Of a stretch of 63,288 bases of DNA, positions 7,440-63,288 are shown piece by piece. Position numbers and translations under genes: made by a program. A model generated the notes under the pieces. The model saw only the letters and a program-made list of their open reading frames with translations, was not told the DNA's origin and did no database searches. Source of the DNA: a virus (lineage: Duplodnaviria > Caudoviricetes); IMG/VR virus record IMGVR_UViG_3300027833_001748, positions 1 through 63,288 of that record. One strand, written 5' to 3'. Within the stretch, counting starts at the first letter, position 1; each line of letters starts with the position of its first letter.

Positions 7440-7440
7440 T

Positions 7441-11756: not shown

Positions 11757-11779
11757 TTAGTATAAACAAGGAAACGCAT

Positions 11780-33378: not shown

Positions 33379-33381
33379 TAG

Positions 33382-35292: not shown

Positions 35293-35298
35293 AAACGA

Positions 35299-35304
35299 TA
35301 AATA
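35299..35304 (+). promoter_or_regulatory. Putative late promoter (TAAATA) before tail fibre 3
   Basis: GATAAATAATAT in a 40-nt intergenic gap. Confidence 0.6.
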
Positions 35305-35332
35305 ATATAATAGCACTAGGGGTTACACAATA

Positions 35333-38808: not shown

Positions 38809-38837
38809 TTGACAAACTCTAAAATCTAATATATACT
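38809..38837 (+). promoter_or_regulatory. sigma70-type promoter opening the modification cluster
   Basis: TTGACA (38809-38814), 17-nt spacer, TATACT (38832-38837); AGGAG before ATG 38864. Confidence 0.82.
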
Positions 38838-38863
38838 AGTACTAATTAACTAGGAGTTTAACT

Positions 38864-39214
38864 ATGGATGAACGTTTAGAAAAAGCATTAGACTTTTCTA
38901 ATTATATGCTAACACTCAGTAATCAAAAACGATTATTATCTGAAAAATATCAGCAAGATTTAATTCATTTTTATAGTGGATCTCAATTTACAATTACACG
39001 AGAATTAATTACATTTGTAAGCGCAATGGTAGATGCTGAACAAGACGAAGTTGTAATTATTGATGATAATAGTATTCCTTGTATGGTAAGCGATATTAGT
39101 GATTTTCATATTAATATTTTAAACAAATACGCAACAGCGTCAAATGATTATTATACAGAATATGCAAGTCTAAAAACAAACAGAAGCGTAGAGAAATTAG
39201 TCGAGCATGAATAA
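38864..39214 (+). CDS. Hypothetical protein, first gene of the cluster
   Basis: 116-aa ORF with strong SD and 8-nt overlap with the next gene. Confidence 0.8.
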   Translation: MDERLEKALDFSNYMLTLSNQKRLLSEKYQQDLIHFYSGSQFTITRELITFVSAMVDAEQDEVVIIDDNSIPCMVSDISDFHINILNKYATASNDYYTEYASLKTNRSVEKLVEHE

Positions 39215-40058
39215 AGGTGCATTTGTAATTGCACGAAATAATGGCCATATTGATTATGTAAAACAAGCTGTTTTCCTTGCAAAAAGAATAAAGAAATATC
39301 TAGACATACCAGTTACAATAGCGACTGATAGTGCAGACTATCTAAAAAATACGTTTGATGTAAACATATTTGATAATGTAATTGAGTTACCATATACTGA
39401 CGAAAAAAACTTGCGATACTTTTTTGATGGAACATTGTCAAAAAAGACAGCTAGTTTTAAAAATGCTAATAGAGCAAATGTATATAATCTAACTCCTTAT
39501 GATGAAACATTATTAATGGATACTGACTATATCATTTCAAATGATTTGCTTAAAAGTTGTTTTGACTCAGTATCTGATTTTATGTTATATAAAAAATCAG
39601 ATGATATTGCAAAAGTACGTGCTGAAGACGAGTTTGATACAATAAGCAATACTAGTGTTGATTTTTATTGGGCTACTTGCGTATTTTTTAGAAAAACAGA
39701 AACTAATAAAACATTTTTTGATCTTGTTAGTCACATAGAAGATGAATGGAATCATTATAGACGAGTGTATCAAATTAAATCATCATTATTTAGAAATGAT
39801 TTTGCATTTAGTATAGCCGTACACATAATGAATGGATTTCAAACAGGAACATTTGCTCAACAACTTCCAGGAAGTATGATGTATACTACTGATAAAGATA
39901 TATTGTGGAGCATGAAAGATGATAAAATGATGTTCTTAGTTGAAAAGAAAGATTACTTAGGTGAATATACTGCTATAAAAACTAAAGGACAAACTATTCA
40001 TGTAATGAACAAAAGTAGTCTTAATAGAATTATTGATGAGGAGTTTGCAAATGACTAA
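39207..40058 (+). CDS. GT-A fold glycosyltransferase (GT8-like), paralog A1
   Basis: YNLTPYDETLLMDTD (DxD), RNDFAFSIA, C-terminal HVMNK. Confidence 0.7.
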   Translation: MNKGAFVIARNNGHIDYVKQAVFLAKRIKKYLDIPVTIATDSADYLKNTFDVNIFDNVIELPYTDEKNLRYFFDGTLSKKTASFKNANRANVYNLTPYDETLLMDTDYIISNDLLKSCFDSVSDFMLYKKSDDIAKVRAEDEFDTISNTSVDFYWATCVFFRKTETNKTFFDLVSHIEDEWNHYRRVYQIKSSLFRNDFAFSIAVHIMNGFQTGTFAQQLPGSMMYTTDKDILWSMKDDKMMFLVEKKDYLGEYTAIKTKGQTIHVMNKSSLNRIIDEEFAND

Positions 40059-40893
40059 AGGTATTGTATTGCTTGCTCAAAATAACGAAACTGATGATTA
40101 TGTATTACAAGCATGTTTGTTAGCAATGAGTGCAAAGGTTCATAATAAGGTACAGATAAGTGTAATAACTAATGACGATGTACCACAAGAATATGTAGAT
40201 CTTTTTGATCAAATTATTCCTATTCCGTTTGGAGATGCAGCAGACGATAGTGAATGGAAAGTTGAAAACCGTTGGAAAATTTATCATGCTAGTCCGTATG
40301 ATGAAACTATTGTAATGGATACAGATATGTTGGTATTACAAAATATTGATGTATGGTGGGAGTTCTTATCTAACTATGAAATATTTTATACAAATAATGT
40401 ACTAACATACAAAGGTGAAACTGCTAATACAGAATATTACAGACAAACATTTATTGATAATAACTTGCCTAATTTATTTTGTGGATTGCATTACTTCAAA
40501 AAATGTGATAACGCAAAAGAATTCTATACTTGGTTAGAACTAGTAGTTAATAATTGGCAAACCTTTTATGAACAGCATCTTGTAGCGTCTAGTCGCCCTA
40601 AGCATGTTAGTATAGATGTATGTACTGCTATTGTAGCAAAAATATTAGATTGCGAATCTAACATAACCAATAAAATTTCTAAGTTTCCAAGTTTTACACA
40701 CATGAAGCCATATTGTCAAGGATGGGTAGATGTACAAGTTAGTTGGCAAGCTCAAGTAGGTGTATATATGTCTAAAAATACTGATTTAAAAATTGGCAAC
40801 TATGTACAGTCTGGAATATTACATTATACTGAAAAAGATTTTGTAGAGAAATCTCCCGCATTAGAACGATATAGGAGTTTATTAAATGTCTAA
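40051..40893 (+). CDS. GT-A fold glycosyltransferase (GT8-like), paralog A2
   Basis: YHASPYDETIVMDTD, FTHMK, LHY. Start moved from 40033 to ATG 40051 (GAGGAG SD, 8-nt overlap). Confidence 0.7.
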   Translation: MTKGIVLLAQNNETDDYVLQACLLAMSAKVHNKVQISVITNDDVPQEYVDLFDQIIPIPFGDAADDSEWKVENRWKIYHASPYDETIVMDTDMLVLQNIDVWWEFLSNYEIFYTNNVLTYKGETANTEYYRQTFIDNNLPNLFCGLHYFKKCDNAKEFYTWLELVVNNWQTFYEQHLVASSRPKHVSIDVCTAIVAKILDCESNITNKISKFPSFTHMKPYCQGWVDVQVSWQAQVGVYMSKNTDLKIGNYVQSGILHYTEKDFVEKSPALERYRSLLNV

Positions 40894-42217
40894 TTTACAG
40901 CTATTAGTTGAAAAGTTTGCACCAACTACGCAACCTAATGAATCCTTTGTATATTACAATAAAGAAGATGGCAAGATACATAAGATAAGCGGAATAAACC
41001 GTTTTGATGAAAAATATTTAATTTTCCCAGTTGCTACAGATGAAGTAATGCCAATATTGTCCGGACAAAAGAAAACTGATGACTTTGTTATACGTTATGA
41101 TATAAGTTCTAAACAGGTTGTTCTAAAAGAAGTTCAATACGAAGATGAATTTAGTACAGCATCAACAATGACATACCAGTTACCGGTAATTAAGAATGCC
41201 CAAGAAGGTCATTATTCATTACACGAAGTTTATCAAGGTATCAATGTATATCTTTGGTCTAACGATACTAGATATCTTAAAGGTGAATGTATATGGCATA
41301 ATGATAATGTATACAAACTACAATCCGATGTTGATAAAAACTTTAATGTACTTGATCATAAATTGTTAGCAGAAAATGTATTAATAACAAATATTCCAAC
41401 ACAAGACCATAGCACAAATGGAATTAGATTTGAACCTGAATATGTTGGAGTACATATTGACATTTGGTATAAAGAATTAAAACATGTAAAAGGACAACAC
41501 GTTTTTATAAAAAACAATGTATATAAATTTATAAAAAATGTTAAATTAGATACTGAATTTAATATGAAAAATGTAGAATTAATTGTTAGTAACGTAAAAC
41601 TATTCCAAGACAAAAACAAGAGCTTAACTACAGATGACAATCTACATTACGGTGATGTAATATTAAAAAATAATAGTTTATATAGTGTTGTAAAAACTGA
41701 ACAACAATATAAAAAAGATAAAAAGAGTATATTCTTTTACTATAATAATGATACAGTATTATTTTATCAAGATGAAGACAATGTAATTGTTGTAGATACA
41801 TTAACTAACAATACTAAAGAAAATATTGATTCATTCTCAGTAGTAGACAGCAGTAATTTATCAAATGGACAAATAATACTTTGTGGTAATCGTTTGTATC
41901 AACTACAGACATCTAAAGATTATGATATTATTGTTAAACAAAATACTATTAATAGAACATGGTGTATGAATCTTAATCCGTATACTAAAAAATTCTTAAA
42001 GTCTAGCGGGCAATTAGCCAACGAAAAATTATACTTTAGTGTTACTTCAAAATATGATCCTAATATTCTTTACAGAAGTTTAGAATTTACAATAGGTGAT
42101 TTATTAGATGAAACTTCATCTATAATTCCGTTCATATATGAGTCAGAAAACAGTGTTGATGATGTAAGTATATACACAGCAAAGTATTTTGATAGTTACG
42201 CACATGAGGTTATTTAA
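40886..42217 (+). CDS. Hypothetical protein with CBM5/12-like internal repeats
   Basis: WSNDTRYLKGECIWHNDNVY and WYKELKHVKGQHVFIKNNVY 70 aa apart, plus two degenerate copies. Confidence 0.7.
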   Translation: MSNLQLLVEKFAPTTQPNESFVYYNKEDGKIHKISGINRFDEKYLIFPVATDEVMPILSGQKKTDDFVIRYDISSKQVVLKEVQYEDEFSTASTMTYQLPVIKNAQEGHYSLHEVYQGINVYLWSNDTRYLKGECIWHNDNVYKLQSDVDKNFNVLDHKLLAENVLITNIPTQDHSTNGIRFEPEYVGVHIDIWYKELKHVKGQHVFIKNNVYKFIKNVKLDTEFNMKNVELIVSNVKLFQDKNKSLTTDDNLHYGDVILKNNSLYSVVKTEQQYKKDKKSIFFYYNNDTVLFYQDEDNVIVVDTLTNNTKENIDSFSVVDSSNLSNGQIILCGNRLYQLQTSKDYDIIVKQNTINRTWCMNLNPYTKKFLKSSGQLANEKLYFSVTSKYDPNILYRSLEFTIGDLLDETSSIIPFIYESENSVDDVSIYTAKYFDSYAHEVI

Positions 42218-43149
42218 TGGCAAAGTTTAAACCTATAGATTACGATATAATCTATTTGTCCTATGACGAACCGAACGCAGAAAAAAATTACGCAGACTTA
42301 TGTAAAATAGTTCCCTGGGCAAAACGTGTCCACGGTGTAGACGGAAGTGATGCTGCACATAAAGCCTGTGCAGAATTAAGTGAAACTGACCGGTTTATTA
42401 CTGTAGATGGTGACAACCGCATACGAGAAGATTTTCTTAACCAAGAAATTGATTTTGATGAACACGCAGATTTGCAAAGCACAGTGATTAGCTGGTGCGG
42501 ACGTAATGAAATAAACGGACTAATGTATGGCAACGGCGGACTTAAATGTTGGCCCAAACAGTATGTTCTAAACATGCGTACACATGAAAATGCAGATCCT
42601 AATAATGCACATGCACAAGTAGACTTTTGCTGGGACGCAAAATATATTCAAATGAACAGTTGCTATTCAGATGTGTATAATAATGAAACTGCTGGTCAAG
42701 CATGGAGAGCAGGCTTTAGAGAAGGTGTAAAACTTGCTACTGATCGCGGAGTAAGGATTGAAAAAGAAGAATTTAAAAACAATCATTGGCGCTGCTTACA
42801 TTGGTTGTATATTTGGAGCATGGTAGGTGCAGATGTTGAAAATGGTCTGTGGGCAATCTATGGCGCACGAGAAGGACTGTATAAAACAATGTGTACAGAT
42901 TGGGATTATGTACAAGTTAGAGACTTTAAATACCTAAACAGTCTTTGGGAAGAAGTTGAACCAAGGGTATCAATGGAAGGACTACAAGACTCTATTGAAG
43001 ACTTAGGCAACAAAATTCTAACTGAATTAGATATACCTATCTCAGCAAAACCGTTAGATGCGCAACAAAGCAAGTTTTTTAAAGCAGTATATCAACACCC
43101 TTCAAGAACTGATCATCAACAGTTTATAGAAGAATTAAAGGACGTATAA
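42217..43149 (+). CDS. Glycosyltransferase-like protein, paralog B1
   Basis: YDIIYLSYDEP.A..NY...RVHGV.G...AHKA.A...VDGDN (DxD)...NGLMYGNGGLK...AWRAGFRE. Confidence 0.6.
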   Translation: MAKFKPIDYDIIYLSYDEPNAEKNYADLCKIVPWAKRVHGVDGSDAAHKACAELSETDRFITVDGDNRIREDFLNQEIDFDEHADLQSTVISWCGRNEINGLMYGNGGLKCWPKQYVLNMRTHENADPNNAHAQVDFCWDAKYIQMNSCYSDVYNNETAGQAWRAGFREGVKLATDRGVRIEKEEFKNNHWRCLHWLYIWSMVGADVENGLWAIYGAREGLYKTMCTDWDYVQVRDFKYLNSLWEEVEPRVSMEGLQDSIEDLGNKILTELDIPISAKPLDAQQSKFFKAVYQHPSRTDHQQFIEELKDV

Positions 43150-44534
43150 TGGATATTATTAAATTTAAAGAGGAAGTAATGGAACCAGTTAGTTGTACTT
43201 TTTGTACTGCTAAATGGAAGCAAGTTACTTTGCATTTACAAACAGGCCATACTCACAGTTGCCATCATCCAACTTCGCATAAAATTCCACTTGAAGAATT
43301 AAAAGATAATCCAAGCGCATTACATAACACTAAGTTTAAAAAAGAACAACGTAAACTTATGCTTGAAGGCAAGCGTCCTGAAGAATGTGATTACTGTTGG
43401 AGAGTTGAAGATAGTGGAAGTAATGTACTAAGTGATAGAACATATAAATCTTTTGAGCCTTGGGCCCGACCTTATGTAGATGAAATTGTATCAAAGCCAT
43501 GGGACGACAATGTTAACCCAAGTTATTTAGAAGTTAGTTTTAGCAGTGTGTGTAATTTTAAATGTAGTTATTGTTCACCGCAAGTAAGTTCTAAATGGAT
43601 GGAAGAAATTAAAGAACACGGCCCGTATAAAACATCACAATCATTTAATGACTTACAACATTTAATTGCTACTGATGCAATGCCTATACCAAATAAAGAA
43701 CATAATCCTTATGTAGAAGCGTTTTGGAAATGGTGGCCTGATGTAAGTAAAGATCTAAAACATTTTAGAATAACAGGCGGCGAACCATTATTAACTAAAG
43801 ATACATTTAAAGTACTTGATGACTTAATTGAAAACCCAAAACCTAATCTTGAGTTTTCTGTTAACAGTAACATGTGTGTACCTGATGCAGTATTTGAAAA
43901 ATTTATTAGTAAAATGAAGATTATTGGCTCTCAAGGAAAAGTTAAAAAACTTAAAATATTTACAAGTGCTGAAGCATACGGTTCACAGGCAGAATATATA
44001 CGCCACGGTTTAGACTACGACATGTGGATATCTAATATACGCAGAGTATTACAAGAAGTGCCTAACTGTACATTTACATGTATGAGTACGTATAATGTAC
44101 TAAGCATATTTTCGTTTGATAAAATGTTAAAGGATTTATTAGATCTTAAATTAGAATTTGGTGGTGCAGGCAGACAAATTCCTATAATACTTGATACACC
44201 ATATTTAAGATACCCGCCACATCAAGCAATGTTTATTGCAAACCCTGAGTGGAAAGAAAAATATTTAAAACCGCAATTAGATTTCATGCTTAATAATTTA
44301 GAAGACATGCATGTACGTGGTAAAGAAAATATGGGTTTCTTTAAATGGGAAGCTGATAAGTTTCAGCGGTTGTATGATATTATTGACCAAGAACAGCAAG
44401 ATGAATGGACTGTAACAAACAATAGAAAGGACTTTATTACTTTTGTTAACGAACATGATAAGCGCAGAGGAACAGACTTTTTAAAGACTTTCCCTGAAAT
44501 GGAAAAAGAATATCATCAATGGTCAAATCTTTGA
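43149..44534 (+). CDS. Radical SAM enzyme 1, N-terminal twitch-type Fe-S domain
   Basis: CNFKCSYC, TGGEP; N-terminal FC..KW...SCHH...ECDYCW. Confidence 0.92.
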   Translation: MDIIKFKEEVMEPVSCTFCTAKWKQVTLHLQTGHTHSCHHPTSHKIPLEELKDNPSALHNTKFKKEQRKLMLEGKRPEECDYCWRVEDSGSNVLSDRTYKSFEPWARPYVDEIVSKPWDDNVNPSYLEVSFSSVCNFKCSYCSPQVSSKWMEEIKEHGPYKTSQSFNDLQHLIATDAMPIPNKEHNPYVEAFWKWWPDVSKDLKHFRITGGEPLLTKDTFKVLDDLIENPKPNLEFSVNSNMCVPDAVFEKFISKMKIIGSQGKVKKLKIFTSAEAYGSQAEYIRHGLDYDMWISNIRRVLQEVPNCTFTCMSTYNVLSIFSFDKMLKDLLDLKLEFGGAGRQIPIILDTPYLRYPPHQAMFIANPEWKEKYLKPQLDFMLNNLEDMHVRGKENMGFFKWEADKFQRLYDIIDQEQQDEWTVTNNRKDFITFVNEHDKRRGTDFLKTFPEMEKEYHQWSNL

Positions 44535-45502
44535 ATACAGAATTAACTGATCGAGAATTAAAAGCTGCTCGAAAAGCAGCTAAACGTGAGCGCAAAGAAA
44601 GAAACAGGCGCAACAGCGTAAAACCTGTACGAGAGTTAAAATCCTATAGTAACAAAAAGAAAAAACTTGCATTTTGTTTTAGTGGCCAACTTAGAACTTG
44701 GAATAGCAGCATAGGCACATGGCAAATATTATTTGATGAATTAAAAGAAAAACATAACGTATCTGTCATTGATGTGTTTTGTCATATCTGGGATCATAAT
44801 ACTGTACAACAAGGAATAAAGCATGCCACAGAATCTGAAGTTATTACTACATCAGTTCCAGATGATGAAATAACTAGATATATTGAACAACTTAAACCTG
44901 TATCTTATAAAATTGACGACATTATTGCATCTAAAAAAGCTATGAAAGACACTCAGTTCCAAACAGTAATTGATTCTAATGCTGTTTCTAGAGGCAAATA
45001 TAATGCATGGCTGTCTCCACAATTTTATTCAGTTATGTATGCAGCACATTTAAAAAGAAGATATGAAATAGAAAATGATTTTCATTATGATGCATGTGTG
45101 CGTATGAGAAATGATTTATTTTTAAATGATAGATTTAGAGAATGCTTACCTATTGAAACATTTTTAAATCCAGAGTTTAACACAATGTATTCTTGTCATT
45201 CTGGAATAGATGAATCTGTATGGTTTAGAAAAAGATTAGGCGATGTATTTTGGTATGCTGATAGTCCGACATTTGATAAACTATCAAATTTTTATCATTG
45301 GTTTCCAAACATGCCATTAGAAATGACGATATCACACGATGCGCCTCCAGAGCATTTACTTTACTATTATACAAGAATGTGTAATATATCAATAGATCCA
45401 AATATTGTACATTATGTTTCTGTATGCAGAGATGCTGATTATGCTAAAAAGAAGGAAGCTGCCGGCCTCGGTCCATTGGGGGAGCATGAAGTACAATGTT
45501 AA
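44519..45502 (+). CDS. Glycosyltransferase-like protein, paralog C1, with basic N-terminal extension
   Basis: AFCFSGQLR...VFCHIWD...QFYS...YDACVRMRND...PEHLL. Confidence 0.55.
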   Translation: MVKSLNTELTDRELKAARKAAKRERKERNRRNSVKPVRELKSYSNKKKKLAFCFSGQLRTWNSSIGTWQILFDELKEKHNVSVIDVFCHIWDHNTVQQGIKHATESEVITTSVPDDEITRYIEQLKPVSYKIDDIIASKKAMKDTQFQTVIDSNAVSRGKYNAWLSPQFYSVMYAAHLKRRYEIENDFHYDACVRMRNDLFLNDRFRECLPIETFLNPEFNTMYSCHSGIDESVWFRKRLGDVFWYADSPTFDKLSNFYHWFPNMPLEMTISHDAPPEHLLYYYTRMCNISIDPNIVHYVSVCRDADYAKKKEAAGLGPLGEHEVQC

Positions 45503-46284
45503 GCAAAAGAGTTGCAGTTTGTTTTAGCGGACAAATACGAGATTGGCACACTGCTACAAAAAATATTTTACACTATTTTTCGACAGATCATATAGCTAAT
45601 GTAACAGTAGATTTTTTCATACACACATGGGATATAAACACGTGGCGAAAACCAAAACAACACCACCATGTATTTAAAAATAAACCTCATAAAGATTTAA
45701 AAAAAATAGTAGAAGCATACAATCCTAAAAAATATCATATGTCTTCTTATGATGAAACACGTTGGCCAAATAGCGAACCTTGGGATCCATTATTTTATAG
45801 TTTTGAATATAGTGTATTATTAAAACAACAATACGAATTAGAAAATAATTTTACATACGATGTTGTTGTAAAGGCTCGTCCTGATACAGTATACGAACCG
45901 CAGCAACGGTTTCCGTTTGAACATAGAATGCCCGCAGGAACTTGTTATACAACAACTACTGTTTCTAAATTTCCTAGAGAATTTAATAAACATTGTTTTG
46001 ATGATGTTATGTTTTTTGGTGATAGTAAAACAATGGATGTTATGGCAGGATTGTACAAGTACTATGCAGTAAAAAGAAAAAACAACAAAGACGCAATGCA
46101 GCAGTATGAATATCATTTAGGCCCTGGAACATTATTATACGAATATGCAGTAAAAAACAATATTCATCCAGGTAGCTGGCCTACTAGCTATGCTGTTATA
46201 CGGAGTACTATGCGAGATCATGAGCTTGACTCGATAGACGATTATGAAAAAATAAAAAGACTTTGGCAGGAGTGGTATATATAA
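45496..46284 (+). CDS. Glycosyltransferase-like protein, paralog C2
   Basis: AVCFSGQIR...FFIHTWD...LFYS...YDVVVKARPD...DDVMFFG. Confidence 0.55.
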   Translation: MLSKRVAVCFSGQIRDWHTATKNILHYFSTDHIANVTVDFFIHTWDINTWRKPKQHHHVFKNKPHKDLKKIVEAYNPKKYHMSSYDETRWPNSEPWDPLFYSFEYSVLLKQQYELENNFTYDVVVKARPDTVYEPQQRFPFEHRMPAGTCYTTTTVSKFPREFNKHCFDDVMFFGDSKTMDVMAGLYKYYAVKRKNNKDAMQQYEYHLGPGTLLYEYAVKNNIHPGSWPTSYAVIRSTMRDHELDSIDDYEKIKRLWQEWYI

Positions 46285-47968: not shown

Positions 47969-47971
47969 TTG

Positions 47972-48652: not shown

Positions 48653-48658
48653 GTTAAA

Positions 48659-52390: not shown

Positions 52391-52401
52391 GTGAGGTAGT
52401 T

Positions 52402-52899: not shown

Positions 52900-52900
52900 T

Positions 52901-52929
52901 TTGACAAATATGTCAAAAGGTGTTATAAT
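52901..52929 (+). promoter_or_regulatory. Perfect sigma70 promoter with extended -10; probably a leaderless transcript
   Basis: TTGACA (52901-52906), 17-nt spacer, TGnTATAAT (-10 at 52924-52929); ATG at 52935 with no SD. Confidence 0.85.
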
Positions 52930-52934
52930 AAAGC

Positions 52935-55639: not shown

Positions 55640-56370
55640 ATAAGTTTGGAATACTAGGTTATGGCTATGTAGGTAAAGCTACACACAAAGGTTTGCTTAA
55701 AGATGCAAAGGCCATTGTGTATGATATAATGTTTGACATGCCAAAAGAAGTTATATATGAAGCAGATACCGTTTTTATTTGTATACCTACAATTACTGAA
55801 ACAGATATTGATATAGTAATTAATGAAATTAAAGATTTAAAACAGCATAATGCAAATGTAGAAATTGTAATTCGTAGTACATTACCATTAGGAGCATGTG
55901 AACAAATACAAAAAGAAGCAGGTAACATTATCTATATGCCAGAGTTCTTGCGTGAAAGATATTGGGATACAGATTGCTTTAAACGTCCGTTAGTTGTGGG
56001 TAGCGACAATAGTATACCGCAATGGCTACAAGACGAAGAAATTAAAACATGTTCTACTAAAGAAGCAGAGCTAGTTAAAATGTATTCTAATAATTTTGCA
56101 GTAATGCGTATTGCATTTGCAAATGTGTTTTATGATTTAGCAGAAAATGTTGGCGCTGATTATAATAAAGTATTAGATATGTACTTAGACATACAACAAG
56201 ACCAAACATATATGGAAGTTCCTGGACACGATGGAACACGAGGCTTTGGAGGCAAGTGTTTACCTAAGGATTTAGATTTCCTTATTGAAACACTTGACGA
56301 AAAAGGTATTGATCAAAATTGGTTCAAACATATTAGAGAGTTAAATAAAAGATGGCAAAAAAAGTTTTAG
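55636..56370 (+). CDS. ugd: UDP-glucose/GDP-mannose 6-dehydrogenase family, short form
   Basis: GYGYVG, ICIPT, IRST, PEFLRE, AELVK..SN, GFGGKCLPKD. Confidence 0.88.
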   Translation: MNKFGILGYGYVGKATHKGLLKDAKAIVYDIMFDMPKEVIYEADTVFICIPTITETDIDIVINEIKDLKQHNANVEIVIRSTLPLGACEQIQKEAGNIIYMPEFLRERYWDTDCFKRPLVVGSDNSIPQWLQDEEIKTCSTKEAELVKMYSNNFAVMRIAFANVFYDLAENVGADYNKVLDMYLDIQQDQTYMEVPGHDGTRGFGGKCLPKDLDFLIETLDEKGIDQNWFKHIRELNKRWQKKF

Positions 56371-57230
56371 TAACAGGAGCATCAGGAATGATTGGTAGAG
56401 AGCTGTGTAATCAGCTAAATGCCGACGACTACTATGTAGTTGCAATTGATAATCATTTTAGATATTCACATAGACCTGGTTGTGCAGAGTATGTAACAGC
56501 AAATATACAAACATATCTTCCTAAAATAGATAACGATTTTGATTATATATTTCATATGGGTGCAATAAACGGTACAAAGTATTTTTATGATATACCTAAT
56601 CAATTACTTGAAAATAATATTACAACAGATTTTTCAGTATTTAATTTTTGCAAACGTAATCCTAAATGCAAATTAATCTACGCAAGTTCTAGTGAAGTAG
56701 TAGCAGGTACGGAAGTGTTTCCGACGCCCGAACTAATAGATGTTTCCATCAAAGACATACACAATCCTCGTTGGAGTTATAGACTAAGCAAAATGGTTAG
56801 TGAAAATTATTTAACAAATTGTGAAAGTATTGATTGTTTAATTGTAAGATTCTTTAATGCATTTAGTCCTGCATCGGGCTCGGGTCATTTTGTAAGAGAT
56901 ATATTAGATAAAATAGATAATGAAGACTTTACATTAATAGGAGCAGATGAAACACGTTGTTTTATTAGAGTTGAAGATACAGTTGATGCATTATTAAATA
57001 TATTTAAAGATGTATCCTTTGAAGTTGTTAATATTGGCAGCGATGAAGAAATAACCGTATTAGAAGCAGCAACTATACTTGCTAAACACAAAGGTGTAAA
57101 TCCTTTTTGGAAACATGTAGATGGTAATATAGGCAGTGTTAAACGCAGACGTCCTGATATTAGTAAATTAAAAGAATTTTATCCATTATTTAAACCAGCA
57201 AAGTTTGCAGATTCGGTAGGCGACCTATGA
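56352..57230 (+). CDS. NAD-dependent epimerase/decarboxylase (extended SDR; UDP-glucuronate decarboxylase-like)
   Basis: VTGASGMIG, ASSSEV, PRWSYRLSK (YxxxK), RFFN, ETRCF..VED, RRRPDI. Confidence 0.85.
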   Translation: MAKKVLVTGASGMIGRELCNQLNADDYYVVAIDNHFRYSHRPGCAEYVTANIQTYLPKIDNDFDYIFHMGAINGTKYFYDIPNQLLENNITTDFSVFNFCKRNPKCKLIYASSSEVVAGTEVFPTPELIDVSIKDIHNPRWSYRLSKMVSENYLTNCESIDCLIVRFFNAFSPASGSGHFVRDILDKIDNEDFTLIGADETRCFIRVEDTVDALLNIFKDVSFEVVNIGSDEEITVLEAATILAKHKGVNPFWKHVDGNIGSVKRRRPDISKLKEFYPLFKPAKFADSVGDL

Positions 57231-57835
57231 AGATAGATATACAAGACGTATTATTTTGGATGGATGCTATCCGCAATAGTGATGATAGTTATCGTACACT
57301 TGAAAGTTTTTGGAAGGGACAAGTTAATAGTAAGCTATGGCTTGTAGAGCAGTTAGCTCTTGCACGAAGAACAGAATATACTCAACACACTATTACTATA
57401 CACGGAGGATGGCATGGCGTTTTAGCAAGTTTATTGTTTAGTAGTGACATACCGATATTACATATTACAAGTGTTGACATTGATCCTACATGTGAACCAA
57501 TTGCATATACTATGAATAAACGGCAAGAGATAGATAACAAATTTGTTGCAGTCACAGAAGACATGTGTAAATTTAGATATTTTTCTGATATTGTTATTAA
57601 TACTAGTTGTGAGCATATAACACAAGAAGATTACGACAAGTGGTTAGATAACGTACCTACAGATGCCCAGATAGTATTACAAAGTAATAATTATTTTGAT
57701 CACGAGGAACATATACGTTGCAGTACTGATCTAGATGATTTTGTAAAGATGAGTAATATTCACGTTCAGTACAAAGGTGAACTTAAAACGCCTAAATACA
57801 CACGTTATATGATTATTGGACAAAAGTATGAATAA
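57227..57835 (+). CDS. Class I SAM-dependent methyltransferase-like protein
   Basis: IHGGWHGVL, SVDID, DM, INTSCEH Rossmann pattern. Confidence 0.65.
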   Translation: MKIDIQDVLFWMDAIRNSDDSYRTLESFWKGQVNSKLWLVEQLALARRTEYTQHTITIHGGWHGVLASLLFSSDIPILHITSVDIDPTCEPIAYTMNKRQEIDNKFVAVTEDMCKFRYFSDIVINTSCEHITQEDYDKWLDNVPTDAQIVLQSNNYFDHEEHIRCSTDLDDFVKMSNIHVQYKGELKTPKYTRYMIIGQKYE

Positions 57836-59210
57836 CTTAGACAAATATATATCAGCAATAACTAAAGAAGCTGGTAGCGAAACATTTTGTGTTTTGCCTT
57901 GGATACACTTTGCTACTAGACCTAATGGCGATATGAGATTATGTTGTTCATCTAATGCAAGCGGAGCCGGCGGAGATCACACAGTTGGCCTCGTTAAAAT
58001 GGAAGACGGAGAGCCTGCAAACTTTGGTAGAGAAACTCCAATGGAAGCATGGAATAACGACTACATGAAAAGTGTACGTACAACTATGCTTGAAGGTAAG
58101 ATACCTGCTAGTTGTCGAAAATGTTTTGAAGAAGAATCTCGCGGAGTTGCAAGTAAACGTGTTTGGGAAAGTTATACTTGGATGGAAGATGGTGTAGACA
58201 TTCCTGAATTAATACGCCAAACTAAAGAAGATGGCACAGTTCCTGAACAGTTACAGTATTTAGACTTGCGACTAGGTCATACCTGTAATATTAAGTGTGT
58301 AATGTGCAGTCCGCATGATTCGAGCAAGTGGGTAGTAGATCATAAAAAATTAATGCCACAGTTAGAAGATCCTGAAGTTATACGACAAATGCAGTGGGAT
58401 AAGAAACAGTTTAATAATAAGTGGCACGAAAAAGATACGTTCTGGGAAGAAATGAATGCACAGATACCCAATCTAAAACAAGTATACTTTGCAGGCGGTG
58501 AGCCTCTAATGATTAAAGAACACAAGCTGTTTATTGAAGAAATTATTAGACAAGGTTATCAAGACAAAATATTGTTACGTTACAATTCAAATGGGCTGTT
58601 AGTAGACCAAGATTTAATTGAAATGTGGAGTAAGTTTAAAAAAGTAAAGTTTGCTATTAGTATGGATGCTAGTCACGGACGTGATGAATATATACGTTAT
58701 CCTACAAACTTTGATACTGTAGAAAAAACTTTGCATATGCTTGACAACACACCTGACAATATACAAACAAGTTTAGCAACAGCAATACAGATATTCAACA
58801 TAAAGCACCTGCCTGATTTTATGAAGTGGAAACTTGAAAGCGGATTTAAAAAGTTAAATGTAGGCGAAGTTCCAGGCGGCATACAAATGGGCGGCGGACT
58901 AGTTAATATGCACTTGTTGTATATTCCAACATTCCTTAGTATACAAATACTACCTGAAGAAGATAAGCAAGAAGTTAAAGAACGCTTTATGGACTTTAAA
59001 GATTGGTTATGGAATAACTATAGACAAGATGACGAATATTGGAAACATAATCCATATGGTTGGAAACGTTGGGAAGCAGTTCTTAATCATATGAATGCAC
59101 AAGACAACAGTCATTTACTACCAGGCTTCAAAGAATACACAAACAAACTTGATGCTATACGCGGATTGTCAGCAGCCAAAGTATTTCCAGAGTTAGCACA
59201 CTTGTTATGA
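57828..59210 (+). CDS. Radical SAM enzyme 4, N-terminal twitch-type domain
   Basis: FCVLPW...GDMRLCC...SCRKCF; CNIKCVMC; AGGEP. Start moved to ATG 57828 (8-nt overlap). Confidence 0.92.
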   Translation: MNNLDKYISAITKEAGSETFCVLPWIHFATRPNGDMRLCCSSNASGAGGDHTVGLVKMEDGEPANFGRETPMEAWNNDYMKSVRTTMLEGKIPASCRKCFEEESRGVASKRVWESYTWMEDGVDIPELIRQTKEDGTVPEQLQYLDLRLGHTCNIKCVMCSPHDSSKWVVDHKKLMPQLEDPEVIRQMQWDKKQFNNKWHEKDTFWEEMNAQIPNLKQVYFAGGEPLMIKEHKLFIEEIIRQGYQDKILLRYNSNGLLVDQDLIEMWSKFKKVKFAISMDASHGRDEYIRYPTNFDTVEKTLHMLDNTPDNIQTSLATAIQIFNIKHLPDFMKWKLESGFKKLNVGEVPGGIQMGGGLVNMHLLYIPTFLSIQILPEEDKQEVKERFMDFKDWLWNNYRQDDEYWKHNPYGWKRWEAVLNHMNAQDNSHLLPGFKEYTNKLDAIRGLSAAKVFPELAHLL

Positions 59211-60172
59211 TTAAACAAGTAATAAACTCTCAAGATCCTAAAACACTTCGTATTGAATACATGATTGGCAATACTTGTAATCACAAGTGTTGGTATTGTT
59301 TTAAAGGTTCAAATGAAGGTGAGTTTAGATGGACTGATGATTTTGATGCTACTACTAAAAACTTTTTTCATCTATTAGATCATTATAAAAAATATGGTAA
59401 AGAAAGATTTGAAATACATATTGTAGGCGGCGAACCTACACTATGGCCTGAATTAGGTAAGTTTACAAAACTTCTTAAGGAAAAATATAACTCTTGGGTT
59501 AGTATTAGTACTAACGGTTCTCGTACTTTAAGATGGTGGGAACAGTACGGACAATATTTTGATGATGTAATGATTAGTGTACATCACGAATATGCTGATA
59601 TAGAACATTTAAAAAAAGTAGCTGACATAGTTTACAAGCAAGGACCTGTTGTAAATGCAATGGTACTAATGGATCCTTTTGCTTGGGGTAAATGTATAGA
59701 CATAGTAAAGCAACTACGTACTAGTAAATATAGATGGTTTATAAATGCAATGGAAGTTATGCACACTACTATTGATTATACGCCAAAACAATTAAAATAT
59801 ATAAGCAAACCAGTAAAGAGATTTCCTAATCCTATATGGATATTAAAAAAATTAAAAAACTTAAAACGTGATCCTAAAGTTGTATTAGATAATGGCAAAA
59901 CAAAAACTGTAAATAGAAATTGGATAGGATTAAACAAGCAAACTAATTTTAAAGGTTGGCTGTGTAACATTGGCGTAGACAATCTTTATATTGACAAAGA
60001 CGGTAGAGTTACTGGTGCATGTAGAACAGTACTATTTGAAAATTACAACATTAATGATGTAGATTTTATACAAAAATTTAATCCAGTAATTAAACCTAAG
60101 ATTTGCGATATAACTTTTTGCGGATGTCAGCCTGAACAGTTATTAAATAAGATTAAACAAGACTACCAATAG
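59207..60172 (+). CDS. Radical SAM enzyme 5, C-terminal twitch-like domain (FKGWxCN type)
   Basis: CNHKCWYC, VGGEPT, STNGSR, FKGWLCNIG...GAC...CDITFCGC. Confidence 0.92.
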   Translation: MIKQVINSQDPKTLRIEYMIGNTCNHKCWYCFKGSNEGEFRWTDDFDATTKNFFHLLDHYKKYGKERFEIHIVGGEPTLWPELGKFTKLLKEKYNSWVSISTNGSRTLRWWEQYGQYFDDVMISVHHEYADIEHLKKVADIVYKQGPVVNAMVLMDPFAWGKCIDIVKQLRTSKYRWFINAMEVMHTTIDYTPKQLKYISKPVKRFPNPIWILKKLKNLKRDPKVVLDNGKTKTVNRNWIGLNKQTNFKGWLCNIGVDNLYIDKDGRVTGACRTVLFENYNINDVDFIQKFNPVIKPKICDITFCGCQPEQLLNKIKQDYQ

Positions 60173-61286
60173 TTTCGTCAGGATGCCAACTAGCTTTTAA
60201 TAATATTTTACGATCTGCTTTTTGGGTAAAGTTTAATCTTACAACATCAATATGTTTTTCTAAGTTAGATACTAACTTATCTTGTGCTGATATTCTTTTT
60301 CTTAATGAATACTTTGCAACAGTACCTTCATAACAAAATACATTTGACAAGTTAACAAACGTTTTTAGTTTAGGATCTATGTGATCTAGTAAATTTAAAT
60401 CTTCAAGCAAGTTTGTTTTAACAAATTTGTAATTTACATTTGCTTTGCGAGGACAGTTTTCTCTCCAGTAATCTAAAGCCTTTTGATTATAATCATAAAA
60501 TATAACAGTGCCTTCGTTAACTAGATCCGAGTACAGTGTACCACTAGCAGGAATAACAACTTGTTGGTATTCACCGTAATTACCAGTAGACCATTCTGTA
60601 TTATCTGTATGTACAAATTCTTCTTGGCAATAATTAAATTTTTCGTCTATATATTTTACATGTTCGTAATAGTCTTTTTCGCTTTCTGGATAATAATGTT
60701 TTTTACTATTACGGATAGCTTCATTAAACACAACAATAGGTAAATTCTTCTCAAATGCTCTGTTTAAAATTTGCCACCCATGTTGTAAATCATTATAGGT
60801 CTTTTTCTCTGTACCTTTGCTTACTGACATAGGCGTATAATCATCATGATAGTTATCTTCACTTCTAATAGGTTCTAATAGAGTATGTGGCATATTCCTT
60901 TCTTGAGATCCAATTTTAGGCATTCCTGCTTTCATCCAATGCTTCATGTTAATTACATAACACTGTCGATGTAACTCGTAATATGCATTATGCATTGTTC
61001 TATCTAGTATATGCCCGGCTATAAAAAAGTCTGTTTTTACAAGTTCGTCTAACGCATCAAAAAAAGCAGTACCATTAATAAATTCTGTACCTGGACTTAT
61101 AACAACACAATAATCATAAATGCGTTGAGACTGTATCACATCGTCGATGTTATCGGTAATTTTTACTACGTATCCCTTAGTCATAAGATTTGATGCTGTG
61201 TAATCAGCAAGATTTATTATTGTATTTCTAATGTCATCATTAGCATATGTTTTAGTATCGTCATGAATTACAAATGATATTTTCAT
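60153..61286 (-). CDS. Hypothetical protein (possible GT-A-like N-domain plus Rossmann-like C-domain)
   Basis: 377-aa ORF downstream of rSAM 6; AGHILD...YELHRQC.VIN; IFYDYN...NLSNVF. The domain call is weak. Confidence 0.7.
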   Translation of the reverse strand: MKISFVIHDDTKTYANDDIRNTIINLADYTASNLMTKGYVVKITDNIDDVIQSQRIYDYCVVISPGTEFINGTAFFDALDELVKTDFFIAGHILDRTMHNAYYELHRQCYVINMKHWMKAGMPKIGSQERNMPHTLLEPIRSEDNYHDDYTPMSVSKGTEKKTYNDLQHGWQILNRAFEKNLPIVVFNEAIRNSKKHYYPESEKDYYEHVKYIDEKFNYCQEEFVHTDNTEWSTGNYGEYQQVVIPASGTLYSDLVNEGTVIFYDYNQKALDYWRENCPRKANVNYKFVKTNLLEDLNLLDHIDPKLKTFVNLSNVFCYEGTVAKYSLRKRISAQDKLVSNLEKHIDVVRLNFTQKADRKILLKASWHPDETIGSLV

Positions 61287-62190
61287 CTTTTATTTCCTTC
61301 GTTAATGGTATGTCTGCAACACACGTACAAAATTTACGTGTGCAAATAATTGCTTCACTTGGCGGTTCAAATGTATTGTTATATATGTTACCTAAACTAC
61401 CGCCTACTCTGCAAGTGGCACGATGTACTTCACCGTCCCAATTAATCATCAAACTTTCTAATCCTGCATTACAACTCCAACCTTTAAACTGATTTAGTTT
61501 ATGTTTAATAACATCATTGGCGTGAATCAAAGTTTCTCCGTCAACAACACAATTTGCCTTTACAGTTGCAGTTTTGCTTAGTATCCATTTTAAGTCTTTT
61601 TCCTTGTAGCGCATATCATCAAACCAATCACGGTCTTCTGCTTCTGTCCATCTAATACGTCTACAAACATACGGAACGTTATGACCATCTAATAGATTTG
61701 CAGCAGCTCTAACTTCATCCATGTGTTCGTGATGACACATTAGGTTAACTTGTAATAGCGTATCCTTGCTTTCCATTTCAAGTAACTGTGTATATCTAAC
61801 AACATTTTCTGCTGCTCTTCGAGAATGTTCGTTATCAAAATGCAAACTAAACACCCATTGGTCTACTGGTTGTTTAATATACCATTCAGGAGAACGTAGT
61901 GCATTAGTTGTAACACTTAGCCAATGCAGCCTAGCATTAGCACATTCTAATATATCATTAATTTTAGGATGTACAGTAGGCTCGCCACCTGTTAAACTTA
62001 ACCGTATAGGTTTATTAAACTTTTCTAATTCGTAAATAGTATTAACCATTGTATCTAAGTCAGTATGTGGTGAAAAGTTATCGTGTATTTCTGCAGGGCA
62101 ATATGCACAATCTAAGTTACAGCGTTTACCTATATTCCATTCAACATGAATACTAGTATGATGACCCCATCGACTTTCTACTTTAAACAT
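61261..62190 (-). CDS. Radical SAM enzyme 6, C-terminal twitch-like domain (FKGWxCN type)
   Basis: CNLDCAYC, TGGEPT, FKGWSCNAG...ATC...CTRKFCTC. Start moved to ATG 62190 (8-nt overlap). Confidence 0.92.
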   Translation of the reverse strand: MFKVESRWGHHTSIHVEWNIGKRCNLDCAYCPAEIHDNFSPHTDLDTMVNTIYELEKFNKPIRLSLTGGEPTVHPKINDILECANARLHWLSVTTNALRSPEWYIKQPVDQWVFSLHFDNEHSRRAAENVVRYTQLLEMESKDTLLQVNLMCHHEHMDEVRAAANLLDGHNVPYVCRRIRWTEAEDRDWFDDMRYKEKDLKWILSKTATVKANCVVDGETLIHANDVIKHKLNQFKGWSCNAGLESLMINWDGEVHRATCRVGGSLGNIYNNTFEPPSEAIICTRKFCTCVADIPLTKEIKDENIICNS

Positions 62191-63288
62191 ATGAAGTGAA
62201 CTCTGGGTTAGCAGCAAGAAAATCTTGTCCACGAGTTTTATCTAACCGCTTGTTAAACTCTATACAGTCTTGCCAATGTGATTTATACATGCATTTTGCT
62301 TGTAAGAAATTTATATTGTCTTGTATTTGCTGTAGTGTAACTTTTTTAAGCAATTCATTTTCTTGTACTAGTGAATATGTTAATACAGTTTCTTTCATTG
62401 CTTCAAGTTTAGTAATAACTTGTTGTTTTAATTCTGGAGGCAATACTTGTGCAGATAATGCCATTGGATAGTTTACTCTATGTGAATAAAATATAATACC
62501 CATGTCTTGTAAAAAGTATTCAATAACTTTATCTATTTGCATAATATTGTTTGCTTGTACAGTAAACGCACCTACAACCCTGCTTACATTAGGAAAGCTC
62601 TTAAATATTTTTACATTTTTTTCTATTTCACTAAACTTGCCGTTGCCTCTAATGTACTCGTAAATGTCATGTACACCGTCTATGCTTACGTTTACTGCTA
62701 CACTTTTAAACTTAGGCCAATAGTCGTGTATAGTACGTCCGCCTTTAATACCTAGTGTAGTGCCGTTTGTAGCATACTTAATTTCGATGTTGTCACCATA
62801 CTCTGCAAGTTTGTCTAGTATTTTGTAGTGGTATGGATCCATTAACGGCTCGCCACCTGCAAACTCTACACGTCTAAAGTACGGTAACAGTTTTTCAAAA
62901 CTTGTCCACCAGTTGTCTGAATTATCAAACGGACCAATATACTGTCCTGGTTTGTTTACTAAGTTTTCAACTGTAGGTACAAGGTAGTTATTTTCTTTTT
63001 TATAAAATTCTGTAACTTCGTCCCAATCTTTCCAACTAGTACTATCTAGCGGGTTACACATGCGACACTTTAAGTTACATAGATTGTTAAGTTTAATTTC
63101 CATAGTAGGAAATTCAAATGGCATTTTGTAATCGTCGCCTAACGTATCAAGTGCATCAGGATACAAGTTTATACGTGCTTCTGGTATAACACCTGCTGTA
63201 TGACGCTGTCGTAAGCTCTCTACACCCTGATCTTCAAGGTCGAAGCACGGCTTACATACATCAGGACGCTCGTCATTAAGTACTTGTC
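62183..63288 (-). CDS. Radical SAM enzyme 7, N-terminal twitch type; 5' end lies beyond the window
   Basis: CNLKCRMC, AGGEP. The frame stays open to the window edge (QVLNDERPDVCKPCFDLEDQGVESLR), matching the CxxC of rSAM 1 and 4. Confidence 0.92.
   Translation of the reverse strand, partial: QVLNDERPDVCKPCFDLEDQGVESLRQRHTAGVIPEARINLYPDALDTLGDDYKMPFEFPTMEIKLNNLCNLKCRMCNPLDSTSWKDWDEVTEFYKKENNYLVPTVENLVNKPGQYIGPFDNSDNWWTSFEKLLPYFRRVEFAGGEPLMDPYHYKILDKLAEYGDNIEIKYATNGTTLGIKGGRTIHDYWPKFKSVAVNVSIDGVHDIYEYIRGNGKFSEIEKNVKIFKSFPNVSRVVGAFTVQANNIMQIDKVIEYFLQDMGIIFYSHRVNYPMALSAQVLPPELKQQVITKLEAMKETVLTYSLVQENELLKKVTLQQIQDNINFLQAKCMYKSHWQDCIEFNKRLDKTRGQDFLAANPEFTSYV

Follow-up and report, generated by a model that had tools for sequence, protein, structure and literature searches.

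Positions 38809-63288 of IMG/VR virus record IMGVR_UViG_3300027833_001748 (Duplodnaviria; Caudoviricetes), a record of 63,288 bp that was analysed whole and is called the window below, hold an island of glycosyltransferase (GT)-like and radical S-adenosylmethionine (rSAM) genes next to the tail-fibre genes. The island probably makes or edits a sugar-based product. Our leading interpretation, held with a little less than even confidence, is that it encodes a soluble cytoplasmic system which builds and tailors a glycan, the acceptor of which would probably be a phage fibre protein; the acceptor being a virion protein at all is, taken as a separate claim, slightly more tentative. A further proposal, which we regard as possible and rather doubtful, is that the rSAMs with an N-terminal twitch domain (N-twitch) and two companion rSAM subfamilies form a new class of sugar-editing enzymes that would place an unprecedented, diversifying glycan on the phage's own tail fibres.

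The island contains 27 open reading frames (ORFs) from 38864 to the window end, 24 on the plus strand (38864-60172) and 3 on the minus strand (60153-63286), and none of them has a membrane segment (19-residue window, Kyte-Doolittle mean >1.6). Genes are named here by their lower coordinate. As judged from sequence comparison, a conserved backbone is made up of a small protein, two GT8-like proteins, a GT-A protein, an N-twitch rSAM, another GT-A protein and a predicted methyltransferase-fold protein, which in the window are the following:

38864-39214 (+): small conserved protein of 116 aa, first gene of the island, without a match in Pfam, PHROGs or NCBIfam
39207-40058 (+): GT8/glycogenin-like GT-A protein, first of a pair (family profile A5 against glycogenin-1)
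40033-40893 (+): GT8/glycogenin-like GT-A protein, second of the pair (same profile)
42217-43149 (+): transferase with a GT-A fold and a helical extension at the C-terminus, paralogous to 52935; unnamed family (alignment and model)
43149-44534 (+): rSAM, member of NF033640 (342.7 bits against a cut-off of 170)
52935-53609 (+): transferase with a GT-A fold, unnamed family, opening the rSAM operon (AlphaFold2 (AF2) model, pLDDT 91.6)
57227-57835 (+): probable class I SAM-binding (methyltransferase-fold) protein (Atlas neighbours, a lead only)

A first-pass annotation, made from the sequence alone, had raised the possibility that the numbers of GT and rSAM genes co-vary among related phages and that both stay linked to tail genes. 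The linkage was confirmed. The backbone lay behind the fibre genes in all four regions fetched, each with the order giant protein, fibres, fibre-like protein, small protein, GT8-like pair, small ORF, GT-A and N-twitch rSAM, and the distance from the gp6-like wedge gene to the N-twitch rSAM was 35-39 kb in the three contigs holding both genes and 42.5 kb in the window. The homologue of 38864 preceded the GT8-like pair in 4/4 long relatives, in locus L078 and in Ralstonia phage RsoM2USA (30-46% identity). Co-variation was not observed. In five long relatives, which are partial contigs of 60-160 kb, the rSAM matches numbered 15, 10, 10, 6 and 12, and each contig had a GT8-like pair plus 2-4 GT-A domains of the unnamed family (one record is cut); GT content was near constant while rSAM number ranged from 6 to 15. 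In the 159.6-kb relative (G001), five weaker rSAM matches also form a separate group at about 115-122 kb, distant from its main island.

For the rSAM gene 57816, 271 matches in IMG/VR were confirmed, the best 80 of which were 78-99% identical. The occurrence of the other genes in 80 related loci was counted with tblastn at ≥50% coverage, and these counts are rough since many loci are short and paralogues cross-match. Gene 62183 was found in 80/80 loci, 57227 in 79/80, 54623 in 77/80, 61261 in 76/80, 59207 in 75/80 and 53590 in 71/80, followed by 52935 (50/80), 42217 (48/80), 60153 (22/80), the UGD-like gene 55636 (17/80) and the short-chain dehydrogenase/reductase (SDR) gene 56352 (13/80). The cassette 48659-52899 was present in 1-2/80 loci, the SGNH genes in 0-1/80 and the DUF7796-type GTs in 0/80; a DUF7796-type profile also gave no match in 5/5 long relatives. 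By this sequence evidence the nucleoside diphosphate (NDP)-sugar cassette, the SGNH trio and the DUF7796-type GTs appear as lineage accessories outside the conserved system. The flanks in relatives add full-length UGD, SDRs, 2-oxoglutarate oxygenases, Asp/Arg hydroxylases, an aminotransferase, fatty-acid desaturases and further rSAMs.

A minimal backbone is carried by a cultured phage, RsoM2USA (MG752970), in genes 355-347 at 33-46% identity. The order is the same as in the island, namely a fibre-like gene, small protein, two GT8-like proteins, small ORF, GT-A, N-twitch rSAM and, at the end, a 52935-type GT-A followed by the 57227-type methyltransferase-fold protein. The homologue of 43149 stands in the same position with 40% identity, and those of 52935 and 57227 are 46% and 34% identical. 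Unlike the island, the RsoM2USA block has one rSAM and lacks the sugar cassette, the SGNH genes and an upstream sigma-70 promoter. All eight backbone genes of RsoM2USA are annotated as hypothetical, and the word 'radical' is absent from the available text of Ahmad et al. 2021 (PMC8504454). Campylobacter phage CP21 gave a match of 21.7% identity only.

The first-pass annotation had counted six GT-like proteins, and a GT-A fold is supported for each of the six by two structure models and one family profile, the models covering one member each of the pairs 42217/52935 and 44519/45496. Two of the six are accessory:

44519-45502 (+): DUF7796-related GT-A-fold protein (phrog_13607; 25% identical to 45496 in alignment A4)
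45496-46284 (+): DUF7796-related GT-A-fold protein with a GT6-like model (AF2, pLDDT 88.3, pTM 0.90)

For the pair 39207/40033, the A5 profile matched glycogenin-1 in the PDB (E 2e-6); the aligned stretch, residues 13-104, contains D96 and D98, the two invariant residues of a DxD motif. Neither protein matched any Pfam family, Glyco_transf_8 included, even at E up to 5, and because this family model is not matched the two are called GT8-like and not GT8 members. The start of 40033 likely lies 6 codons downstream of the listed one, relatives being 280 aa long; among the best 120 (68-99% identical) of its 1265 homologues at E≤1e-3, none carried a Pfam family. In alignment A1 of 42217/52935, D57 and D59 (VDxD) are invariant. 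The AF2 model of the 52935 family had RmlT, SunS, WrtF and ppGalNAcT as top Foldseek matches, aligned with GT-A enzymes at Z 9-11.5 over residues 1-140, and also matched the fold of A64R from chlorovirus PBCV-1 (PDB 2p72, Z 9.3). Profile A1 retrieved nothing significant from the PDB sequences, and an Atlas search with 52935 returned unnamed viral clusters only, apart from one GT2 cluster (0.87) that is taken as a lead. The 52935-type domain also occurs as two or three tandem copies within single proteins of 445-848 aa (locus L020, 3832-5766; locus L039, 1596-4142). The 45496 model had 320 Foldseek matches at E≤1e-3, and the top ones listed were nearly all GT6/GT8, with BoGT6a, GTA/GTB, a3GalT and glycogenin at the head. 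By score 45496 is a relative and not a member of PF25072 (DUF7796; 13.8 bits, cut-off 27), a family carried by 9/81 of its homologues in a precomputed table. Comparison of the GT8-like with the DUF7796-like family by hhalign gave a probability of 0.2%, that is, no detectable sequence kinship.

All seven ORFs that had been read as rSAM proteins contain PF04055 above its cut-off and a CxxxCxxC motif. They belong to three old subfamilies with mutual identity of at most 26%. Besides the backbone member 43149 they are:

53590-54648 (+): rSAM with a Cys-rich C-terminal SPASM-like region, distant relative of BlsE (PF04055)
54623-55639 (+): rSAM of the C-terminal Cys-motif subgroup (PF04055), 62-85% identical in related loci
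57816-59210 (+): rSAM, member of NF033640 (392.1 bits against 170), most conserved gene of the island
59207-60172 (+): rSAM of the C-terminal Cys-motif subgroup (PF04055, motif)
61261-62232 (-): rSAM of the C-terminal Cys-motif subgroup (PF04055, motif)
62183-63286 (-): rSAM, member of NF033640 (272.4 bits against 170, model positions 57-397), N-terminus lost at the window end

The family NF033640 (N_Twi_rSAM, N-terminal twitch), for which the curated NCBI cut-off is 170 bits, thus includes 43149, 57816 and 62183; the other four rSAMs scored 33-38 bits and are non-members. Full-length relatives of 62183 are 421-437 aa long. An NF033640 alignment of 12 sequences showed invariant C157/C161/C164 (CxxxCxxC) and N-terminal C25/C44/C100/C103, and the N-terminal set is a predicted auxiliary cluster site. 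The family is defined by sequence, and membership of the three ORFs names the protein and not its chemistry. Genes 54623, 59207 and 61261 form a subgroup with a common C-terminal motif, FKGW-x-CN-x-G...C...CxxC. The only PDB sequence matched by 53590 was BlsE (E 6e-7), and its score against TIGR04466, the cytosylglucuronate decarboxylase equivalog, was 37.5 bits with a cut-off of 400, so that it is not a member. BlsE is a sugar-acid decarboxylase, and the UGD-like gene 55636 lies two genes downstream of 53590. The N-twitch profile matched the twitch region of BtrN insignificantly (E 0.079). BlsE (PDB 7vob) and BtrN (PDB 4m7s) are auxiliary-cluster rSAMs that act on sugar or cyclitol carbons, and the likeness is an analogy of mechanism, not of membership. 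The first-pass annotation had allowed that the rSAMs might fall into known cofactor or nucleotide families; in NCBIfam, each of the seven stayed below the curated cut-offs of all cofactor, nucleotide and RiPP (ribosomally synthesised and post-translationally modified peptide) families, and the sole cut-off reached was that of NF033640.

Relatives of these enzymes in bacteria were scanned with one genome per species, and 67 loci with N-twitch rSAM homologues were obtained. The closest bacterial homologues of 57816 were found in metagenome-assembled genomes (MAGs) of Bdellovibrionota (43-45% identity), and those of 43149 in Bdellovibrio-type MAGs were 44-46% identical. The Bdellovibrionota MAGs hold a five-family core, consisting of the N-twitch rSAM with homologues of 57227, 42217/52935, 53590 and 54623 (30-54% identity), near which a fatty-acid desaturase, Asp/Arg hydroxylase, SIS domain and methyltransferase are encoded. 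A GT or sugar-specific gene was found within 7-10 kb of the rSAMs in 8/15 annotated loci, a figure that is an impression and not a statistic: L090 (a GT-A homologue), L093 (NDP-hexose 2,3-dehydratase and an EryCIII-like GT beside a polyketide synthase (PKS)), L094 (GT4, GT87 and GT2), L098 (four GT2 genes adjoining four N-twitch genes), L102 (PMT_2 and TylF), L104 (GT9, with a flagellin gene on either side of the rSAM), L107 (two GT7-like genes, an SDR and RmlC) and L108 (two GT2 genes).

Three of these contexts are described further. In L104 (a Bdellovibrio sp. MAG, 8698-13517), the protein encoded between the flagellin genes has 834 aa and joins an N-twitch rSAM, 46% identical to 43149, to a second rSAM domain, with fliD, fliS and GT9 adjacent; this locus is cellular and not viral, and has one gene family in common with the island. 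Locus L093 (Poseidonocella sedimentorum, 1468-17579) is a natural-product cluster in which two B12-binding rSAMs stand ahead of the N-twitch genes, in the order two B12-binding rSAMs, N-twitch, NDP-hexose 2,3-dehydratase, an ORF without assignment, N-twitch, EryCIII-like GT and PKS. The succession of dehydratase, N-twitch rSAM and EryCIII-like GT there suggests by analogy that NDP-sugars, and not the finished glycan as first proposed, are the substrates of some rSAMs. A Bdellovibrionales chromosome carries tandem N-twitch arrays of about 6 and about 5 copies (L097 and L099), one beside an AsnB-type amidotransferase.

The description of the island as a tightly coupled gene block of about 24.5 kb was borne out: 25 of the 26 junctions inside it are overlaps or gaps of ≤11 nt, and the single exception is 35 nt (52900-52934). 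The gap ahead of the first gene, 38864, is 67 nt. Both gaps are filled by predicted promoters:

38809-38837 (+): predicted promoter P1, sigma-70 type, TTGACA-17-TATACT, 11/12 consensus positions, filling the 67-nt gap
52901-52929 (+): predicted promoter P2, TTGACA-17-TG-TATAAT, perfect sigma-70 consensus with extended -10, filling the 35-nt gap

P2 is the sole 12/12 match to the sigma-70 consensus within 20 kb. A distance of 5 nt separates its -10 box from the start codon of 52935, and 5-8 nt do so in relatives; because of this short distance the first mRNA of the 52935 operon may be leaderless. A P1-like pattern, TTGAC(A/T)-N16-18-TAnnnT, was present upstream of the 38864 homologue in 5/5 related viral loci and was not found in RsoM2USA, where a hairpin occupies the position. 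A P2-like pattern stood directly upstream of the first GT-A gene in 14/28 related gene starts examined, several of which have near-identical upstream DNA and so represent fewer independent cases; among the 14 starts without it, 7 are translationally coupled to an upstream paralogue. The structural genes upstream are instead preceded by (C/G)TAAATA-like motifs, as read from the sequence. The T4 late-promoter octamer TATAAATA was rejected as a late-promoter marker here, since the window contains 1 match against 15.0 ± 3.8 from shuffles, and this match is not upstream of a gene. A terminator scan remained at chance level (8 found, 7.9 expected). In four metatranscriptome-labelled runs, contigs of 150-300 nt with 0-5 differences were found across 44.7-62.6 kb; these are assembled and may contain DNA, for which reason they were not taken as a sign of transcription or of where transcripts begin. 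The island is thus best described as two operons with their own predicted sigma-70-consensus promoters, distinct from the late tail-fibre operon. Because sigma-70 promoters stand at the island and TAAATA-type motifs at the structural genes, it would be a separate unit that is probably transcribed early, the early firing of P1 and P2 being deduced from T4-type biology.

The window is classed as linear, and since CheckV estimated its completeness at 16% the full genome would be several hundred kb. The window end cuts through the island, whose last gene (62183-63286, -) is incomplete. The left 38 kb form a T4-type structural region in the order virion proteins, baseplate hub, gp25-like, gp6-like wedge, a 5122-aa ORF, and tail-collar and fibre ORFs; at the extreme left, genes for a gp46/gp47-type SbcCD nuclease and a gp55-type late sigma factor occupy 2-3155 on the minus strand. 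The wedge gene matches phrog_10646 (E 1e-296), and its protein shares 32-36% identity with the counterparts in Atu_ph07, SCTP-2 and Rak2-like jumbo phages, by which the source is assigned as a Rak2/Atu_ph07-type jumbo phage. The 5122-aa ORF (15322-30690, +), between the wedge and fibre genes, matches phrog_10938 (virion structural protein, E 1e-303) with weak hints of CBM_5_12 and FG-GAP. Its counterpart in RsoM2USA, of >288 kDa, was detected in virions according to the available text (PMC8504454). The collar and fibre ORFs span 31324-36808, and two fibre-like paralogues then reach 38796, in agreement with the adjacency to tail genes noticed at first. These paralogues (36818-37741 and 37804-38796) have no family match and have a common N-terminal A-x-R-x-N-N-L motif; they are the last genes ahead of the island, and homologues take the same place in relatives and as gene 355 of RsoM2USA. 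Both are candidate glycan acceptors. Megablast of the whole 24.5-kb island against 50,697 phage records gave no match, and 14 runs of marine DNA, belonging to 7 studies of which one may be the source, contained near-identical DNA of the phage.

The remaining proteins of the island are as follows:

40886-42217 (+): 443-aa protein, possibly carbohydrate-binding, with four copies of G-x-hydrophobic-N-x-Y; not part of the backbone
46263-47144 (+): SGNH-like protein, DUF6071 (PF19547, 46.5 bits against 27), GDS motif near the N-terminus
47141-47968 (+): SGNH-like by motif alone (N-terminal CGDSFAKG), without family match
47969-48652 (+): SGNH-like, DUF6071/GDSL below cut-off (PF19547, 25.0 bits against 27), GCS in place of GDS
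48659-49099 (+): small cupin like the C-terminal domain of mannose-6-phosphate isomerase (Cupin_2 and MannoseP_isomer below cut-off; phrog_7851, E 5e-13)
49053-50636 (+): fusion of a sugar-1-phosphate nucleotidyltransferase-like N-domain with an APH-type kinase C-domain (TIGR03992, APH)
50614-51330 (+): shikimate-dehydrogenase-like NAD(P) oxidoreductase (Shikimate_dh_N, 42 bits against 27)
51308-52390 (+): GatZ/KbaZ class II aldolase-like TIM-barrel protein (PF08013, 28.0 bits against 26.7)
52402-52899 (+): HAD phosphatase of NT5C type (PF06941, 29.1 bits against 24.8; phrog_2643, E 3e-22)
55636-56370 (+): short UGD-like NDP-sugar dehydrogenase of 244 aa (UDPG_MGDP_dh 67.7 bits, N-domain 35 bits), GGKCLPKD motif
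56352-57230 (+): SDR, NDP-sugar epimerase/dehydratase type (PF01370, 99.5 bits)
60153-61286 (-): conserved 377-aa protein without a match in Pfam, PHROGs, NCBIfam or PDB (profile A7), in 22/80 related loci

Several assignments of the first-pass annotation were refined by these results. Its three SGNH-like proteins include one above the family cut-off (46263), one below it (47969, with weak Lipase_GDSL matches) and one with the GDS motif only (47141). Its cupin, NTP-transferase-kinase, dehydrogenase and epimerase cassette is present, the 'epimerase' presumably being the aldolase-like 51308, and the NT5C-type HAD is additional. In this cassette, 49053 matched TIGR03992 (E 1.4e-14, residues 18-226) and APH (25.2 bits against 23.2, residues 380-430), with weak GalU-type matches to PDB sequences at the N-terminal motif only; 50614 matched aroE models at E 1e-25, far under their cut-offs; and 51308 matched F_bP_aldolase below cut-off, with weak PDB sequence matches as aldolase hints. 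The logic of the cassette (48659-52899) would be like that of the GDP-heptose route. Of the UGD plus SDR pair, the SDR stands, and the UGD is a short form that ends at residue 244; its matches cover the central domain and a portion of the N-domain, and none was found to the C-terminal UDP-binding domain. Its GGKCLPKD motif holds what we take to be the catalytic Cys of UGD. This short form is 56-77% identical in related loci, and other relatives have full-length UGD-like genes of 382-414 aa. The methyltransferase, 57227, is a fold-level lead, its Atlas neighbours carrying Methyltransf_31/PCMT/NAS at scores of 0.87-0.96; profile A2 and the single sequence gave no Pfam, NCBIfam or PDB-profile match, and the family has 54 invariant columns in 22 sequences. 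The repeats of 40886 begin at residues 133, 203, 256 and 328, its match to CBM_5_12 is insignificant (E 0.8), and the gene was found in 0/80 related loci. For 13 unassigned ORFs, Pfam at E up to 5 gave chance-level hints only, except for the DUF7796 lead.

In the system proposed here, the backbone, with four GT-A transferases, one N-twitch rSAM, the SAM-binding-fold protein and the small protein, would transfer host or phage-made NDP-sugars to a cytoplasmic acceptor; as the backbone is without sugar-nucleotide genes, it would by itself depend on host NDP-sugars. This phage would add the activation cassette, the UGD-like/SDR pair, the three SGNH-like proteins, two GTs and six rSAMs. The rSAMs may alter sugar carbons through H-atom abstraction in reactions of the oxidation, epimerisation, decarboxylation or C-methylation type, with NDP-sugars before transfer, the attached glycan or both as substrates, and the variable number of rSAM genes would diversify the product. 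The acceptor would most likely be a phage structural protein, probably one of the fibre proteins encoded just upstream. This would resemble cytoplasmic flagellin glycosylation, in which soluble enzymes decorate a structural protein before assembly. A phage-protein acceptor is favoured because the backbone travels with fibre genes across different hosts, the enzymes are soluble and one homologue lies in a flagellin locus; since the backbone also occurs in RsoM2USA, which has a very different host, a phage-encoded acceptor would fit better than a host-specific one.

Several points weigh against this interpretation. The functional assignment of the backbone families is drawn from sequence and gene context. 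The sigma-70 (early) type of both predicted promoters suits DNA modification or host takeover at least equally. IspD/IspDF and CDP-glucose pyrophosphorylase matched the 52935 model at Z 10-11, equal to the GTs, and among PDB sequences the N-twitch profile scored best against a RiPP cyclopropyl synthase (8vpo, E 8e-9). No sugar gene was seen near the rSAMs in 5/15 annotated bacterial loci (L095, L096, L097, L105 and L109), and 2 were ambiguous (L099 and L100). The virion analysis of RsoM2USA, in which the ten most abundant gel bands were identified, is silent on glycosylation in the available text (PMC8504454).

The main rival is a remodelling of the host envelope, which we consider unlikely. 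Soluble enzymes would alter, at the cytoplasmic face, lipid-linked precursors of the lipopolysaccharide (LPS) core, O-antigen or capsule, and host transporters would export them, for example for a superinfection block or for stopping adsorption of progeny to the infected cell during a long latent period. The glycogenin-type match of 39207/40033 suits this, since GT8-like enzymes are typical LPS-core transferases, as do the sigma-70-type early promoters and the Asp/Arg-hydroxylase-family and fatty-acid-desaturase genes of related loci, which potentially act on lipids; this function was proposed for the GTs of the pelagimyophage host recognition cluster, as far as the available text goes (PMC7029224). 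However, the backbone is common to a soil Ralstonia phage and marine phages (33-46% identity), whose surface glycans should differ, the bacterial homologue in a flagellin locus points to a protein target, and the island has no priming transferase, lipid-carrier enzyme, flippase or membrane segment. The first-pass annotation had likewise seen no flippase or polymerase, and no Pfam family of either kind was matched among the 27 ORFs. A soluble small molecule, such as a pseudo-oligosaccharide, nucleoside-sugar or glycoside in the style of aminoglycoside or nucleoside antibiotics, acting inside or outside the cell, is distinctly less probable. It would account for the closest characterised rSAM relatives, BlsE and, insignificantly, the BtrN twitch region, for the N-twitch genes in the Poseidonocella polyketide-glycoside cluster, and for a cassette that joins a kinase/nucleotidyltransferase with shikimate-dehydrogenase-like and aldolase-like proteins. 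Yet that cassette is nearly confined to this lineage (1-2/80 loci), the four to six GT-A enzymes are of protein- or LPS-type families, exporter and resistance genes are absent, and the island keeps a fixed position beside the fibre genes.

Hypermodification of DNA, in which GTs would glycosylate a modified base and rSAMs edit it so that the genome is shielded from host nucleases, appears very improbable. Its appeal lies in the early-type promoters, which T4 DNA-modification genes have, in the NT5C-type deoxyribonucleotidase-like HAD within the island and in the cytoplasmic nature of all the enzymes. It is opposed by the contexts of the bacterial homologues, which are glycan, flagellin and polyketide loci and not DNA-modification islands, and by the window, which in keeping with the first-pass annotation contains none of the base-hydroxymethylases, kinases or pyrophosphorylases by which known hypermodification proceeds; PF00303 (thymidylate synthase/hydroxymethylase) was also not found in the five long relatives, a weak point as these are fragments. 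The least credible alternative, to which we give hardly any weight, is a RiPP-like cross-linking or epimerisation of side chains in a phage peptide or structural protein, with no sugar involved. Peptide maturases make up most of the characterised SPASM/twitch enzymes, many of them gave weak matches in NCBIfam, and a RiPP enzyme heads the PDB matches of the N-twitch profile; the RiPP-family scores are nevertheless all far under their cut-offs, the rSAMs are constantly linked with GT-A genes, and no RRE/PqqD, protease or exporter family was matched in Pfam or NCBIfam. Nor does a precursor-sized ORF fit into the island, whose only gaps (67 and 35 nt) are filled by promoters, as the lack of a precursor peptide noted earlier would lead one to expect; a precursor elsewhere is possible.

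Soluble glycosylation of virions has precedents in other viruses. Virus-encoded soluble GT-A enzymes act in the cytoplasm on capsid or tail proteins in these cases, which are the capsid GTs of chlorovirus PBCV-1 and the virion glycosylation of mycobacteriophages, the latter reportedly described by Freeman and co-workers in 2023. To our knowledge, radical-SAM enzymes have no part in either system.

The first-pass annotation knew of no characterised pathway of this composition, which is fair, and the gene set has nonetheless been noticed in print. Nishimura et al. 2017 (PMC5332604) reported, in the text available, a T4-like marine genome with 12 rSAM genes, which are counted there among Fe-S cluster clients. 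Zaragoza-Solas et al. 2020 (PMC7029224) described a host recognition cluster (HRC) with GTs and rSAM cassettes in pelagimyophages and cyanomyophages; the available text suggests that the GTs change the host O-chain and gives no function to the rSAM cassettes. Like the island, the HRC of T4-like marine myophages is there a large variable region which lies in the structural part and follows a giant structural gene, and the order giant 5122-aa protein, fibres and GT/rSAM island is HRC-like, the gp14 boundary of the HRC lying beyond the window. In contrast to that description, as far as available, the present case is a Rak2/Atu_ph07-type jumbo phage with a defined backbone, own promoters and 7 rSAMs. 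No paper combining radical SAM, jumbo phage and glycosyltransferase was found in the literature search, and for virion glycosylation with rSAM nothing was found that assigns a function. New here are the own promoters, the conserved backbone, its minimal cultured form, the constant GT against variable rSAM content, and the bacterial contexts.

In conclusion, since the phage or its relatives were met in 14 marine DNA runs and 271 IMG/VR matches, the island represents a common investment of abundant ocean viruses and not a curiosity. The minimal form in RsoM2USA and the homologue in the Bdellovibrio flagellin locus offer two experimental entry points, and solving one family, be it an rSAM subfamily, the unnamed GT-A family or the small leading protein, would name thousands of database entries and would probably reveal new radical chemistry on sugars. 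Should the host surface or the phage DNA be the target, a new kind of takeover or protection would be at hand. If the tail fibre is the target, phages would have in the island a parallel to flagellin glycosylation, serving to adjust host recognition or to protect the fibres. How far the glycan is edited would then depend on how many rSAM genes a phage carries (6 to 15), and host range in phages would have a new level of control.

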